DNA from: an uncultured Armatimonadetes bacterium
GTDB lineage: Bacteria > Armatimonadota > Hebobacteria > Hebobacterales > Hebobacteraceae
Reading direction: 5' to 3'
Assembly (NCBI GenBank): GCA_963716175.1
Contig: OY970296.1
Location: 384,001 to 448,000, forward strand
DNA length: 64,000 nt
Made by a program: the position numbers and the translations under genes. This document shows positions 5,670-15,533 of the stretch, in pieces; positions within the stretch are counted from its first letter, which is position 1, and the number at the start of each line of letters is the position of its first letter. The notes below the pieces were generated by a model, which was not told the origin of the DNA, did not search any database, and saw only the letters and a program-made list of their open reading frames with translations.

Positions 5670-6665
5670 TCAACCCGTGAGTTCCCACGGCGGGCGCTTC
5701 CGGAACGGGCTCTTGAAAGTGTTGGCCAGCTTGCCGGATTCCTCGAGGTGGATCATGCAGGCCCGCATGCAGCCGCGACCGCCACAGATCGCCGCCGGAT
5801 GGTGAAAGCTCTCCAGGGCGTTCCGGATGTAGGGAAGGTCACGCTGCAGCCGATCGCCCAACCCCTCCCACGATCTTCGGCCCCTGTCGTCCGCGGCTGA
5901 CTCGTCCATCACCTCGCGCATGAGCTGCGCCATCTCCTCGTTGAGGAATGGGTTGAACTCCGGCGAGGCCGCTTGCCATCCTACAAAGCACTTGCTGGTA
6001 TCGAGGTCGTTCCACTCCAGCTCGCGGCCGGCCACTCTGACCTTGACTGTCTTGTCGGCCGAGATGGCGCCAACCGGACAGTCCTGGGCGCACCGCAGGC
6101 AGCGGTCGCAGAGCGGTGGGCCAGAGTAGAGTGAATCGGGTTCCAGCGGCGCATCGGTGAGCACGAAAGCGAAGCGCTGACGGGGTCCGAACTGCGGCGT
6201 GAGGAAAACCTTGCTGTAGCCGATCTCTCCCAGGCCGCAGATGAAAGCGGATATCCGGAAGTGAAGGAAGACGTCGGGCGCGGGAAGACCAGGGGCTACG
6301 GGCCTCCCGGCATTAGTGCCTAGCCGCACGCTGGTGTTGCTGTAGAGCATAGCTTCGTATCCCTGGTCCTCAATGAAGGACCCCAGCTCGCGCAGCACGA
6401 GAGGCGCATGGACGTCGTTCACGTTGGCGTAACCCAGTGACGGATAGGCCGCGAAAAAGGTGCCCTCTTCGATGCCGCGGAACAGCCCCCGATGGATCCG
6501 AAAGCCGAGGCCGATGATGCATCGCGCCTCTGGGAAGATGTGGCGGGGATCGAACTCCCGCGGGGCACCCTCGAACCGGTCCATGCCGCCGATCCCAACC
6601 AGGTCGGCTCCGGCTCGTCGGGCTGCTTTCTTGACCGCGAGCGTGAGGCCGTCGGCCATTTCCAC
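5670..6665 (-). CDS. Epoxyqueuosine reductase (QueG)/reductive dehalogenase-like cobalamin and 4Fe-4S protein
   Basis: GADLVGIG, GLGEIGYSKVFLTPQFGPRQRF..VLTDAPLEPD, CDRCLRCAQDCPVGAI, second cluster C...CGGRGCMRAC; GGAGG RBS. Confidence 0.8.
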   Translation of the reverse strand: MEMADGLTLAVKKAARRAGADLVGIGGMDRFEGAPREFDPRHIFPEARCIIGLGFRIHRGLFRGIEEGTFFAAYPSLGYANVNDVHAPLVLRELGSFIEDQGYEAMLYSNTSVRLGTNAGRPVAPGLPAPDVFLHFRISAFICGLGEIGYSKVFLTPQFGPRQRFAFVLTDAPLEPDSLYSGPPLCDRCLRCAQDCPVGAISADKTVKVRVAGRELEWNDLDTSKCFVGWQAASPEFNPFLNEEMAQLMREVMDESAADDRGRRSWEGLGDRLQRDLPYIRNALESFHHPAAICGGRGCMRACMIHLEESGKLANTFKSPFRKRPPWELTG

Positions 6666-6883
6666 ACCTCCTCCGGGCCCTCGGCTGTGGGAGCCCGGTC
6701 CACCGGGCGACCTCCTCCATGGTTTCCCTGCGCAACAGTCCGCCTCCTGTATCGTACTGGGCCCCGAGGGGGGTGGCAGGCACTATCCGGCCCATGGGGA
6801 ATCAAGACGGCGGTATGTGTAGAGTGCCGATCGCCTGGGCCGTTGCAGTGTGGCCAGAGGCGCCAAAGGAGGGGTGGATTCCT

Positions 6884-8290
6884 ATGCCGCTGATCATACT
6901 GGTGCTGACACTGCTCGCGCTGGCGCTAGCCGCTGGCGCCCAGCCGCCTCGCGTGTTTGACCCAAATGATCGCGAGATCGTGGACGCCTTTCTCCAGGAA
7001 ACAGCCATGGTTCCCGCGCAATTCAGCGCGGAGGAGTGTGCCCGTCTGGCCGACGAGGACGCAGATGAAACCGAGGCCGTCACCTGGCAGGCGATGCCCT
7101 ACCTGCGTATGCCGCTGACCGCCTATCAGCTCACTGGTGACCGAAAGTACCTCGACCTCTTCGTGCAGGCGTTTGATAGCCTCCGCTCCGCCCTGAGCGT
7201 CGGCCCGGACGGCTTCTTGGGCTGGTACGGTAAGACTGATCCCGACTATCGGGATCCCGATGACCCTGACCGCAAGAACGATGCCATCATCTCGAGCTTC
7301 AGCACGGCGGAGACGGTCTGCGACTTCCTTTCTCTGATATCCCAGGATACCGAACTGAGCCGGAAGTACGCGCAGCAGCGCACCCAGTACCTGGACCTGG
7401 TGGAGAACCAGCTGGTGAAGAAGCACGAGGCGCGGGGGGACTTCGTGGATCTCGGCAGCGAGGGCGCCGTCTACCGCAGCCCTCCACGTGCGCTCAAGCC
7501 CGATTCCGCGCGCCTGACCCTGCCCCACAACAAGCACTCGATCATCCTTCGCGGCCTGCTCGCCCTCTACCGGGTGACGGGCAAGGACGAGTACATGCGG
7601 AAGGCAGTCCAGATCGGCACGCGCTTCAAGCACTGCCTGGTGCTGAAGGACGGCCATTACGAGTGGAACTACTGGGATCCAGCAGGCGAGTGGGATGTCA
7701 GCCCCCGCGACCACGACCGGTGGAAGCACTGGATGGGCCCGGAACACCGCGGGGGCTACTACGCGCTCAGCGTTGCGCAGGCAGTCGCGCTCTATGAGTA
7801 CGGACTGGTGTTCGACAGGACCGATATAGACCGGTTTCTGAAGACCCAGCTCGAGAGGTGCTGGAATGGCGATATGGTCAACCCCCAGTGGTCGCGTGTG
7901 GACGGCACCAGGCCGCCCGAATACACCCAGGGCGCGTACATCGCCACCGCGCTGGCGCCCTTCAGCGACAAGGTGGCGGCCTTCCTGTTCACGGGTGACC
8001 GCCAGGAGGAGCGTCGGAAGAGCATCGGCGATTCGTGGCAGGGAGGGCCGGTGACGGGCGGGTGGCTGCACGCAAAGCTGGTGGACTTCCCTGCCAGGAA
8101 GGGAGAGCAGCAGCGTTACCTGGATTACGGCCGGAAGTTCCTCGCCAAACCCTCCACACGGCCGGCAGGCAAGCCCGAGAATCGGCGCCTGGTGGAGGAG
8201 CTGACCCTCGCGGTAACGCCGCCTGGCTATCGGCCCCCCACTTCGCCCGCCCAGATGAGGCCAATGCCGCCGGAGCCCGAACCGCGCTGA
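6884..8290 (+). CDS. Secreted hypothetical protein, probable alpha/alpha-toroid carbohydrate-active enzyme
   Basis: AAGGAGG upstream; Sec signal MPLIILVLTLLALALAAGA; repeated Y-x-x-TG-x-x-x-Y helical hairpin motifs (AYQLTGDRKY, LYRVTGKDEY). Confidence 0.6.
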   Translation: MPLIILVLTLLALALAAGAQPPRVFDPNDREIVDAFLQETAMVPAQFSAEECARLADEDADETEAVTWQAMPYLRMPLTAYQLTGDRKYLDLFVQAFDSLRSALSVGPDGFLGWYGKTDPDYRDPDDPDRKNDAIISSFSTAETVCDFLSLISQDTELSRKYAQQRTQYLDLVENQLVKKHEARGDFVDLGSEGAVYRSPPRALKPDSARLTLPHNKHSIILRGLLALYRVTGKDEYMRKAVQIGTRFKHCLVLKDGHYEWNYWDPAGEWDVSPRDHDRWKHWMGPEHRGGYYALSVAQAVALYEYGLVFDRTDIDRFLKTQLERCWNGDMVNPQWSRVDGTRPPEYTQGAYIATALAPFSDKVAAFLFTGDRQEERRKSIGDSWQGGPVTGGWLHAKLVDFPARKGEQQRYLDYGRKFLAKPSTRPAGKPENRRLVEELTLAVTPPGYRPPTSPAQMRPMPPEPEPR

Positions 8291-9517: not shown

Positions 9518-9766
9518 TCAGCGCGACAGCAGATAGTCAAGTCCCATCCCCAGCAAGGCCTCCCTGACCTGGTCCGGACCGACCTCGACCTTCTCCGTTT
9601 CTCCGCTCACAGTTCTGGCCGCCCCACCCTCCGGGGTCTTTGCCAGGCCAACAGCTCTCTGCCGGAGGACCTTCTTGAACTCCGAGGACGCAGCCAGCAC
9701 GAGGTCGGCTGCTTCTCGGCTGAACTGGATCTCGATCTCGAACACCCTGAACTTTCCTTTTCCCAT
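9518..9766 (-). CDS. Small protein with a histone-fold-like alpha2-L2-alpha3-alphaC segment
   Basis: GAGGTG RBS 5 nt before ATG 9766; FSREAADLVLAASSEF..L...A...A...EKVEVGPDQVREALLGMGLDYLL. Confidence 0.6.
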   Translation of the reverse strand: MGKGKFRVFEIEIQFSREAADLVLAASSEFKKVLRQRAVGLAKTPEGGAARTVSGETEKVEVGPDQVREALLGMGLDYLLSR

Positions 9767-9941
9767 GTTCACACCTCGGTTGACTCAGCCTTTCGCCCTT
9801 TTTTCCCCCTTCTCTCAGGAACCTGCGTCCCCTCTCCGGCCATTAGACGCTCTTGCCCTTCCTATCGTCCGATTTCCGCTCGGCACATCCGCCGAGTTTG
9901 CGGTGAAGACCGCGCAATCTCTCTGCGGCGACCCGAAGTGG

Positions 9942-9970
9942 TTGACAACAGGAGGGCAATGAAGTGCAAT
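9942..9970 (+). promoter_or_regulatory. Putative sigma70 promoter upstream of the aminotransferase
   Basis: TTGACA-17 nt-TGCAAT. Confidence 0.4.
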
Positions 9971-10145
9971 GAGTGTGGATAGAGAATCTGGAGAGGATGG
10001 TTTGGCGCGACCATCTGATGGTGTTCGCACAAAGAAGTAATGTGCGAACGCCGCTCTGGGCCCGTCTGAGCAGTTGCCTGAGCTTCGCGCCCTCACTTCT
10101 TTGAGCGAAGCTCACTAATGCGTGTCGAGCCCGAAGAGGAGACCA

Positions 10146-13589: not shown

Positions 13590-13661
13590 GTAGGGCGGGG
13601 TCTCCTGACCCCGCCAGGCGGGCATGCGCTTGTCCGCCTCCGGCGGGTATGCCCGCCCTAC
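13590..13661. repeat. REP doublet (REPIN-like) with inverted GTAGGGCGGG...CCCGCCCTAC ends
   Basis: GTAGGGCGGGGTCTCCTGACCCCGCC followed by an inverted unit whose loop holds CCGCCTCCGGCGG; the TAG stop of the upstream gene lies in the GTAG foot. Confidence 0.7.
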
Positions 13662-15031
13662 AGGGAAGCGGGCTTGTAAGTCCAATACTGGAGCTTGATC
13701 GCCAGCTTGGTGTTCGGGACCGGCCGGTTCCGGTGCGGGAAGAAGGCAACCAGATCGAAGCTGGCCTCCTCCCACTTGCGCAGCATCTCGTCGAACCCCT
13801 CTGGGTAGAGCGGCGCGGGCTCTAGCCTGATGGGGCTGCGGCCGAGCAGCCTGACCGCGGCGGCTCTCAGCAGCGCGGCCGGCGGCACCAGGCGCCCGGC
13901 CAGGGACACTTCATCCGGCACCCGCCCTTCGGCCGCTATCGTCTCTTCTGCTGACCTGCAGGCGGAGAGGATCTGCTCACCTGTCACGATTCCCTGCGGG
14001 TCGCCCACGCCCGTCTTCGGGAGCGCGGTCGGCCCCACCATGCGGCGCAGCGGGACGCGCTCCGCCTCAGGTCTGAGATTCGCCCACACCACTGCCGCGA
14101 AGCTCTCCGCCAGACTCAGTGTCACGCCAGCCGCGTCGGCGAACGACATTCGTTCGCTCACCCGCCGCGCCGCCGCCTCCACCTGGGCCCGCGTCAGAAA
14201 CGGCGGGTCGCGCCGAGTCTCGCGTTCCACCTCGCCATAGGTCGTAAACTCGACGCCATGCCGCTGCCGGGCATAGTCCACTAGCTCACCAAGGTTGTCG
14301 AGCCGTTTCCTGGTCTCTTCGGCCGGCAGCCGCGGCGCCAGCCGATACGGCGGCCTGGTCGGCGGGTTCGGGTTGTCCAGATAGTTGATCTCGCTCCACC
14401 ATTTGTCGCTGATGAAACGGCAGGGATGGAACCGCACGTTGACCAGGTCTTCGTTCGCAGCGGCGACCCGGTCGAGTTCCCCAGGCGCACGGCCGGCATA
14501 GGTAAGCTCTTCCGCAATCAGGGGCAGAGAGACGCACAAGCTGTTGGCGTACCACGCGATGTGACGCGTCCGCTCGTAGAGCGCGGGTCCGTAGGCGAAG
14601 ACTTTCAGGCCCAACTGCCGGTAGGCCTCCAGAATCTGTGGCGCGGAGTCGCCGCAGGTGCGCAGATAGGTGATGGGCCGCTCGCCGAACAGGCTCTCGA
14701 GGTCGGCCAGGCCCCGCGCCTCGGTGGCCACCAGCCAGCGCGTGGCTTCCTCCCAACCACACTCCTCCACGATCTCCGAGGCGAAACGCGGCCGGTGCGT
14801 CTCGTCCGGGAACAGGAAGTGGTTGTCGCTGTGGTAGCAGATCTCGTGCGCCGACAGCGCCTCGACCAGATCCCATCGGCCCAGATCCCGGATGAAACGC
14901 GCCTTCTCCCCCACCAGGCCAAAGCAGGCGCGCACTCCGCGTTGTGTGAGCGTCCTGCAAATCTGCAGCAGGACATCGTTGGAGGCGGGGTCGGTGAAGT
15001 CCTCGGTATCGAAGCTGACGATAATGCGCAT
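13658..15031 (-). CDS. Polysaccharide deacetylase-like (NodB/CE4-like) protein
   Basis: IIVSFDTEDF, ACFGLVGEKAR, HEICYHSDNH, RFHPCRF; start may be 15055. Confidence 0.65.
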   Translation of the reverse strand: MRIIVSFDTEDFTDPASNDVLLQICRTLTQRGVRACFGLVGEKARFIRDLGRWDLVEALSAHEICYHSDNHFLFPDETHRPRFASEIVEECGWEEATRWLVATEARGLADLESLFGERPITYLRTCGDSAPQILEAYRQLGLKVFAYGPALYERTRHIAWYANSLCVSLPLIAEELTYAGRAPGELDRVAAANEDLVNVRFHPCRFISDKWWSEINYLDNPNPPTRPPYRLAPRLPAEETRKRLDNLGELVDYARQRHGVEFTTYGEVERETRRDPPFLTRAQVEAAARRVSERMSFADAAGVTLSLAESFAAVVWANLRPEAERVPLRRMVGPTALPKTGVGDPQGIVTGEQILSACRSAEETIAAEGRVPDEVSLAGRLVPPAALLRAAAVRLLGRSPIRLEPAPLYPEGFDEMLRKWEEASFDLVAFFPHRNRPVPNTKLAIKLQYWTYKPASL

Positions 15032-15533
15032 TCCTGACCTATCCGATCCCATCATCCCTCTCGCGGCTTCCCTCACCGAATTACCTGCTCCTCTGCTTCT
15101 CACCTTCTCGGCCGGCGTAACTGCCGCCGGAGATCATGGGAAGCTGAACCCGGCGTGTGGCAGTAGAATGCGGCGAGAGCAACGGATGGGGATTGGTGGC
15201 GCATAGTGTCTGGATCTGGCCGCGCCGGGATGGTGGCGGTCGGTCTAGCCTCGGCGGGCAGCCAGCCCACAGCAGGCGCCGTCTTCGATGACTCACTCCC
15301 ACTGGCCCGAGCAGCGCCAACCCACGGCGCGCTCGGAGGCCCACAGCCGTTAACCTCGCCGTTGAACGTCGGGCCTGCGTCTCACCCGCCAGAGGCGGAC
15401 AACTTGTTGAGGAGGCAAAAGGAGGCACATGCGGAGCATCTCACTTGCGGCAGTGGCCTGCGCGCGATCCTCTGCGGTCGCACACCAGCCGCAGGCTCGC
15501 GAATCCCGATGGCAAGGCAGGAGGCGAAACGGT

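Follow-up and report, generated by a model that had tools for sequence, protein, structure and literature searches.

A lineage-restricted 82-residue protein of Armatimonadota predicted to form an interlocked homodimer with a strand at the place of histone helix alpha1

Schwab et al. described 17 categories of prokaryotic histones, starting from the InterPro histone-fold superfamily (PMC11390915). In the RKTxxxxD site of these proteins an Arg-Asp pair shapes loop L2 while the Thr binds DNA (PMC11390915). Certain prokaryotic histones without DNA-binding residues, such as DUF1931 proteins and the transmembrane histones, are nevertheless recognized by the InterPro superfamily, and functions other than genome organisation have been suggested for them (PMC11390915). 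A category without alpha1 does not appear in the excerpted text of that article. Histones are also connected to a second group of proteins. In the C-domain (lid) of AAA+ proteins a hinge connects two helix-strand-helix motifs; in histones these motifs share an uninterrupted helix instead, which forces dimerisation, such that a histone corresponds to a domain-swapped AAA+ C-domain (Alva et al., PMC1847821). Here we describe an 82-aa protein encoded in a 64,000-nucleotide stretch of contig OY970296.1 (the window) from an uncultured bacterium of the Armatimonadota. Our preferred reading, to which we give an even chance of being correct, is that the product is an obligate interlocked homodimer of the helix-strand-helix class in which a strand replaces alpha1, and that it is unlikely to be a chromatin histone.

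The coding sequence (P0001) occupies positions 9518..9766 of the minus strand, stop codon included, with the ATG at 9766..9764 and the stop codon at 9520..9518. The coordinates, the length of 82 aa and the peptide stretches quoted in a first-pass annotation of the window are exact, as is the 13-aa insert that it pointed out, which corresponds to T44-E56. That annotation had also credited the gene with a good ribosome binding site (RBS). A Shine-Dalgarno-like GAGGTG sequence (9772..9777, minus strand) is indeed located 5 nt 5' of the ATG, and GGAG-type sites are found at an equal distance in two loci carrying homologues (L014 and L015). An alternative GTG start (9772) lies within the GAGGTG sequence. 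On the 5' side, a spacer with no strand assigned (9767..10121) separates the gene from a divergent DegT-type aminotransferase gene. The spacer was first put at about 380 nt; it measures 355 nt, and no Rfam match, consensus promoter or terminator was found in it. The accompanying remark that the gene lies in less GC-rich DNA applies mainly to this spacer, because its GC content is 0.566, as compared to 0.61 for the ORF and 0.663 for the whole window. A Gfo/Idh/MocA oxidoreductase gene is situated 38 nt downstream on the same strand, and shares 74-79% identity with genes of Armatimonadota metagenome-assembled genomes. Nearby ORFs with no Pfam match at E<=0.001 are 5670-6665 (minus strand, 331 aa), 6719-8290 (plus strand, 523 aa) and 13658-15103 (minus strand, 481 aa).

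A word-indexed search with the 82-aa protein returned two proteins among four candidates, and an exhaustive HMMER scan of 1.84 billion representatives identified one true relative (P0004, 61% identity). A repetitive protein of 628 aa (P0005) was matched in nine stretches in the HMMER scan and was discarded as compositional. Of 68 candidates from a profile search, 11 were homologue clusters, each with E<=2e-32 and a length of 80-82 aa; identity to the window protein was 58-69%, except for its own cluster at 99%. The resulting 13-row family alignment contains 28 invariant columns and no internal indels. Using the DNA of three metagenome contigs, we obtained dN/dS values of 0.15-0.24 for five divergent pairs at dS 0.86-1.09, and a value of 0.16 for a near-identical pair. 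The first-pass annotation had allowed that the ORF might not be conserved at all, and the 11 clusters together with these ratios settle that point in favor of the ORF. As core indels are absent from the 11 clusters, dN/dS is low and GGAG-type RBSs precede the homologues, we conclude that the 82-codon ORF is a genuine gene under purifying selection. A chance or decaying ORF without function would agree with the narrow distribution described below and with the finding that none of the 21 runs listed was an RNA run covering the region, but with dN/dS well under 1 at dS near 1, uninterrupted alignment of all 11 clusters, and conserved start codons and RBSs, this explanation is hardly credible.

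The gene is lineage-restricted. No convincing match was found in the genomes of 60 relatives, 29 of which yielded only weak matches, at E 0.0038 to 1, that fell within longer frames unrelated to the gene; the best of these (G018) was inspected and judged to be off-frame noise. Nor was the gene present at 79 loci with an oxidoreductase gene related to the neighbouring one, where the tblastn matches (lowest E 0.05) fell at unrelated positions, and no relative of the protein was found in the IMG/VR, phage and plasmid collections. Among GTDB representative genomes we obtained chance motif matches alone, in a Sphingomonas contig, a transporter and a threonyl-tRNA synthetase. The family C-terminal motif E-A-L-x-x-M-G-L-D/E-Y recurs by chance in the synthetase (L248:4795-6780) and in the transporter, which has a TrkA-C-like segment (L247:1847-3145). 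HMMER and profile searches gave no longer or fused forms of the family.

Synteny had been proposed as a check on the gene, and the gene was found at three different loci in the three relatives compared. In the window it precedes the Gfo/Idh/MocA gene, while in L015 it follows another Gfo/Idh/MocA gene with 21% identity over 126 aa to that of the window. In L014 the small gene (L014:553-795) lies between a gene for an MrfA-type helicase with an MZB domain and a gene for an MrfB-type RNase_H_2 exonuclease, within a spacer of 548 nt. The same mrfA/mrfB-type pair is adjacent in the window's own genome (L249, G000:C1:1396049-1399273), where the gap is 134 nt and the small gene is missing. The L014 proteins share 89% (MrfA end) and 60% (MrfB start) identity with those of this pair. 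From the three differing contexts and the identity of the L014 pair to one without the insertion, we conclude that the small gene changes locus among fairly close relatives.

The predicted elements of the protein were assigned by combining structure models, conservation and hhalign alignment to archaeal histones; all are encoded on the minus strand. Residues 7-16 (9719..9748) are predicted to form an amphipathic strand at the place of histone alpha1. A strand-like N-terminus had been suggested from the sequence at the outset, and both AF2 runs placed a strand there (E10-15 and E11-15). Residues 17-43 (9638..9718) constitute a long central helix equivalent to alpha2 according to AF2 (H17-25 and H28-43), the dimer contacts and the alignment to histone alpha2. 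Its invariant features are the S16-R17 cap, L24-A-A-S-S28, F30, L34-R-Q36, A38 and A42; the helix is broken at 26-27 in the monomer models and crosses its mate at F30 in the dimer model. Residues 44-62 (9581..9637) contain a conserved loop, P45-E-x-G-A-x-R51, and a predicted beta-hairpin (about 50-54 and 57-62), as judged by AF2 strands, hhalign gaps and conservation. This segment amounts to a 10+2-residue insertion relative to archaeal histone L2 by hhalign. Residues 63-82 (9521..9580) comprise helix 64-73, the alpha3 equivalent, and a conserved C-terminal turn, M74-G-L-x-Y/F-L79, which is part of the predicted dimer interface; this assignment draws on AF2, the dimer model, the family alignment and hhalign.

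AF2 monomer models were generated from alignments of 4 rows (pLDDT 69.3, pTM 0.52) and 13 rows (pLDDT 57.8, pTM 0.40). The order of elements was alike in both runs, consisting of strand 10-15, helices 17-25 and 28-43, a hairpin at about 50-62 and helix 64-73. The ESM Atlas ESMFold model of P0004 has a similar closed shape (pLDDT 0.64, pTM 0.49). The three-helix architecture alpha1-L1-alpha2-L2-alpha3 was not found in the AF2 models, in which strand 10-15 takes the place of alpha1. The poor prediction of the monomer fits a fold that needs a partner.

Prediction of the homodimer gave an ipSAE of 0.73 (0.74, 0.71 and 0.73 in the individual runs), as compared to 0.00 for the best of three controls. 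The pLDDT of the partner was 82 or higher, and the runs had at least 97% of their contacts in common. In calibration of the tool, 20 of 30 solved homo-pairs attained its mark, as did 1 of 23 single chains; this guide is rough here, as our own 4-row alignment was used. An antiparallel alpha2 handshake in a predicted dimer had been named in advance as support for a histone fold, and the model contains such a crossing, centred on F30. The lowest-error pairs at the crossing of the long helices are 30-30, 27-27, 26-30, 23-34, 23-38 and 19-38. The last helix of the partner contacts the N-terminal half of the long helix (19/22/23/26 with 63-67/71), residues 7-16 are placed against residues 56-64 of the partner chain, and residues 15/16 pair with 61-63 of the partner. 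The predicted geometry is thus that of a histone handshake with an L1-L2 bridge. In the hhalign comparison, the interface residues V23, S27, F30, L34 and A38 fall on hydrophobic columns of archaeal histone alpha2. The ESM features described below and ESMFold2 are not independent, because the models are related, and the handshake may be model recall.

In the dimer as modelled, the long helices (residues 17-43) would cross antiparallel at the invariant A25-A26-S27-S28/F30 patch, and helix 64-73 would pack on the N-terminal half of the partner's long helix. The strand preceding helix 17-43 would pair with the partner's strand preceding helix 64-73, like the L1-L2 bridge of histones. With an N-terminal strand for alpha1 and the inserted hairpin contributed by the partner, each bridge would become a small three-stranded sheet between the chains. 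Several conserved residues lie outside the predicted interface, namely R17, S28, Q36, P45, G48, A49 and M74, to which E46 and R51 may be added as nearly invariant positions. Together they are candidate binding-site residues. A chromatin protein appears less likely than a small dimeric module that would bind through the exposed R17, S28, Q36 and the P45-R51 loop.

To compare the family with archaeal histones we used 12 PF00808 genes from four of five archaeal genomes, the genomes having been reached via a 16S primer pattern. With hhalign, family alignments of 4, 6 and 13 rows gave P values of 0.0021, 0.0012 and 7e-4 and probabilities of 13.6%, 19.6% and 26%, respectively, and looser local settings gave a P value of 5e-4 and a probability of 31% (Q12-72 on T18-66); these probabilities (14-31%) are far under accepted thresholds, at Neff 1.4-1.6. 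The L1-alpha2-L2-alpha3 register initially recognized by eye is the one returned by hhalign, which places the strand end and S16 on L1, residues 17-43 on alpha2, and residues 62-72 on the L2 end and alpha3. None of 200 column shuffles reached the real score (mean 9.8, SD 2.0, maximum 16.1), and the reversed alignment scored 14.0. Similarly, none of 297 fragments of 82 residues taken from six window proteins reached the single-sequence score (maximum 18.1 versus 18.6). The signal was not peculiar to the 82-aa family. A PCP_red profile built from seven Armatimonadota domains matched the same histone profile over L1-alpha2-L2-alpha3 with a P value of 4.4e-4 and a probability of 33.5%, while direct hhalign comparison of the 82-aa family with PCP_red gave no match (P 0.15-0.22). 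Because PCP_red matches histones equally well, the histone profile signal cannot separate open from closed folds. Similarity at this level marks a helix-strand-helix pattern and does not establish membership in the histone family.

The PCP_red result is an observation in its own right, as this domain may itself be a helix-strand-helix domain; we found no literature on a link between PCP_red and histones. PF08369 scored over the cut-off in 8 of 301 genomes of Armatimonadota, none of which was the window's genome. In the seven cases that we read (L016, L018-L023), PCP_red is N-terminal in open frames of about 300-330 aa with Cys-rich 4Fe-4S-like motifs, and these frames are not protochlorophyllide reductase B subunits.

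Family-level searches did not identify the protein as a histone. No histone-clan match was obtained for any of the 13 members against Pfam at E<=10, where one chance SduA_N row (E 0.14) appeared, and the window protein matched nothing in NCBIfam and Pfam at E<=10. A PF00808 scan of the window's genome did not match the 82-aa ORF, and there was no PF00808 match in the 301 genomes of Armatimonadota. Only rows at chance level were obtained from PHROGs and from PDB sequence and profile searches (a cytochrome c' and a SNARE protein in the latter). Our literature searches returned nothing linking Armatimonadota with the histone fold. ESM Atlas features gave a different picture. The ten best named clusters were all of the histone clan, both for P0001 (top score 0.90, 177 shared features) and for P0004 (top score 0.88, 157 shared features); the rows comprise phage and archaeal clusters along with those of CENP and TAF proteins, and the tool rates such results as lead-grade. 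The idea that the protein is a divergent prokaryotic histone variant has therefore survived in part. The register, the ESM features, the predicted dimer, and the absence of alpha1 and of the RKT motif agree with what had been described, whereas the lack of a Pfam match in all 13 members, the low hhalign probabilities and the absence of histones from the rows listed in the fold searches do not support a histone assignment. The proposed resemblance to eukaryote-type NC2beta/NF-YB proteins is unsupported, PF00808 being among the profiles that gave no match. The sequence pattern is weakly histone-like, and the protein is not a provable histone relative.

The residues that bind DNA in histones were then compared. 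In histones, alpha1 carries DNA contacts, and this helix is absent from the 82-aa family. The original suggestion that the RKT-type DNA-contact motif is lost holds in either register, as the site reads T-E-K by hhalign and K-V-E in the alignment made by eye. By hhalign, the invariant R53, K54 and D60 of archaeal histones face T57, E58 and Q66, and the Thr column faces K59 and is variable across the 13 rows. Positions 57 and 66 combine K/R with E in seven rows, T/A with E in two and T/Q with Q in four, while K/R with Q was never found; as raw counts that ignore kinship among the rows, this pattern hints that the two positions touch, like clamp residues. The pI of family members is 5.2-8.1, as compared to 8.1-10.9 for 11 of the 12 archaeal histones, and the window's genome contains one HU gene. 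Since canonical DNA-contact residues are absent, the protein is not basic and HU coexists with it, the protein is probably not a DNA-wrapping chromatin protein.

The alternatives to the interlocked dimer differ in what they make of these data. A true DNA-binding, nucleoid-associated histone variant might contact DNA via its L1-L2-like ends, N-terminal Lys/Arg residues, R17 and R51. The fold evidence for such a protein would be the same as for the interlocked dimer. In addition, S16 occupies the column of the Ser located before alpha2 in archaeal histones, R17 is invariant, the seven rows with K/R57 and E66 have these residues in the columns of the invariant archaeal Arg and Asp, and one homologue (L014) has mrfA-type and mrfB-type DNA-repair genes on either side. 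However, the site that should read RKT does not, the column of the L1 Arg contains Q/E/T/V/S, HU is available in the same genome, and the gene is missing from nearly all relatives searched, unlike that of a core chromatin protein. As the RKT-type site is missing, the family pI is 5.2-8.1 and alpha1 is absent, we consider a chromatin role to be quite unlikely.

The remaining alternatives emerge from the monomer models. A closed monomeric alpha/beta domain of the AAA+-lid or PCP_red type would have the long helix hinged at A26-S27 and three strands that pair within one chain, with no handshake. Both AF2 models and the Atlas model of P0004 are closed in this manner. With the monomer models as queries, no solved structure was found by Foldseek (pdb) at E<=0.001. 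A fold search of BFVD likewise ended with no match at E<=0.001. The first-pass annotation had looked to Foldseek for a histone match; none was present among the rows listed by Foldseek (pdb) or by an exhaustive VIA search, for which the query was the closed, low-confidence monomer model. The best VIA rows were the PCP_red structures 2kru (Z 5.7, rmsd 2.5, 59 aligned) and 2l09 (Z 5.3), both under the noise mark of Z 8; by Foldseek these two had probabilities of 0.72 and 0.91, E values of 0.7-1.1 and TM scores by target of 0.63-0.69. AAA+ ATPase or clamp-loader chains made up about 21 of the 50 VIA rows listed (Z 3.5-4.7, under the noise mark), a count that rests on entry titles and leaves aside aligned ranges versus domain boundaries. 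PDCD5 proteins also appeared, with Z up to 5.2 and thus under the same mark. Among Atlas structure rows for P0004 were PCP_red, MgsA, the DnaX lid and ClpB D2-small. These results favor a closed domain, but the models are of low confidence, no Z value rises to the noise mark, and sequence similarity is lacking both to PCP_red (by hhalign) and to lid families (in Pfam at E<=10). Moreover, the supposed hinge is an invariant, helix-friendly A-A-S-S without Gly or Pro, and the dimer model is far more confident. We therefore regard a closed monomer as improbable. The same searches brought up RelE/ParE/YoeB-type toxins in 8 of the 50 VIA rows listed (Z 3.5-4.8, under the noise mark), and the Atlas structure rows included ParE clusters. 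These rows would be in keeping with a toxin-antitoxin component, for instance a degenerate toxin of the RelE/ParE type, as would an order of elements (strand, two helices, hairpin, helix) that resembles RelE and a gene that changes locus between relatives. Against this, a Pfam search at E<=10 matched none of the 13 members to ParE, RelE or HigB, the window, L014 and L015 share no small neighbouring gene that could be a partner, the 82-aa protein is one strand shorter, and the ESM features list no toxin family, so that a toxin is very unlikely.

Having weighed these alternatives, we return to the interlocked homodimer. The swapped state is favoured by the invariant A25-A26-S27-S28, which is helix-friendly and contains neither Gly nor Pro, and by the higher confidence of the dimer prediction. 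Because AAA+ C-domains and histones are related to each other by domain swapping (PMC1847821), the two kinds of model, closed monomer and swapped dimer, can be read as two states of one architecture. It is conceivable, although we rate the idea as improbable as the closed monomer, that the family is a natural protein at the boundary of the closed AAA+ lid and the domain-swapped histone fold, i.e. an alpha1-less dimer with three-stranded bridge sheets that may switch between monomer and dimer.

Comparison with known systems leaves the family outside each of them. It resembles archaeal HMf-type histones (PF00808, CBFD_NFYB_HMF, and its clan) in weak profile similarity over the L1-alpha2-L2-alpha3 register, in the predicted antiparallel crossing of central helices with strand pairing between chains at both ends, and in size. 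It differs from them by having no significant sequence match, a strand for alpha1, the 10+2-residue hairpin insertion in L2, no RKT-type motif, a less basic composition, and a rare gene at changing loci. Its monomer models superpose on many AAA+ chains (at Z 3.5-4.7, under the noise mark), and its strand-helix/helix-strand-helix order is that described for AAA+ C-domains in the excerpted text of Alva et al. (PMC1847821). Unlike a lid, however, the 82-aa protein stands alone with no ATPase domain, occurs in no longer form that we found, matches no Pfam lid family at E<=10, lacks the first helix and is predicted to adopt the swapped dimeric state. PCP_red (PF08369; 2kru, 2l09) heads the structural rows obtained with the monomer model and has the same weak histone similarity, but it has an N-terminal helix, as judged by sequence pattern, and no hairpin, whereas the 82-aa family has a strand and a hairpin, finds no PCP_red match in Pfam and is not matched by hhalign. 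The DUF1931 and transmembrane histones are similar in being histone-like with proposed roles beyond genome organisation (PMC11390915, as excerpted), and differ in being recognized by the InterPro histone-fold superfamily, as the 82-aa family is not recognized by Pfam. Membership in the histone, AAA+ lid or PCP_red families is not established. Because the catalogue of Schwab et al. started from InterPro profiles, according to the excerpted text (PMC11390915), and the 82-aa family has no profile match, the family falls outside that catalogue.

Should the dimer prediction be wrong, nothing more than another small orphan protein is left. If it is right, a strand can stand in for alpha1 in building a histone handshake. 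The family is invisible to the profiles behind the catalogues of prokaryotic histones, which suggests that divergent forms have been missed. Were the reading to be true, the protein would offer a small and tractable test case for the path from AAA+ lid to histone by domain swapping. A protein at the boundary of the two folds would go further: it would show, in an extant organism, the domain swap from which histones are proposed to have originated, and would do so in Armatimonadota, a phylum in which PF00808 detected no histone-fold protein in 301 genomes.
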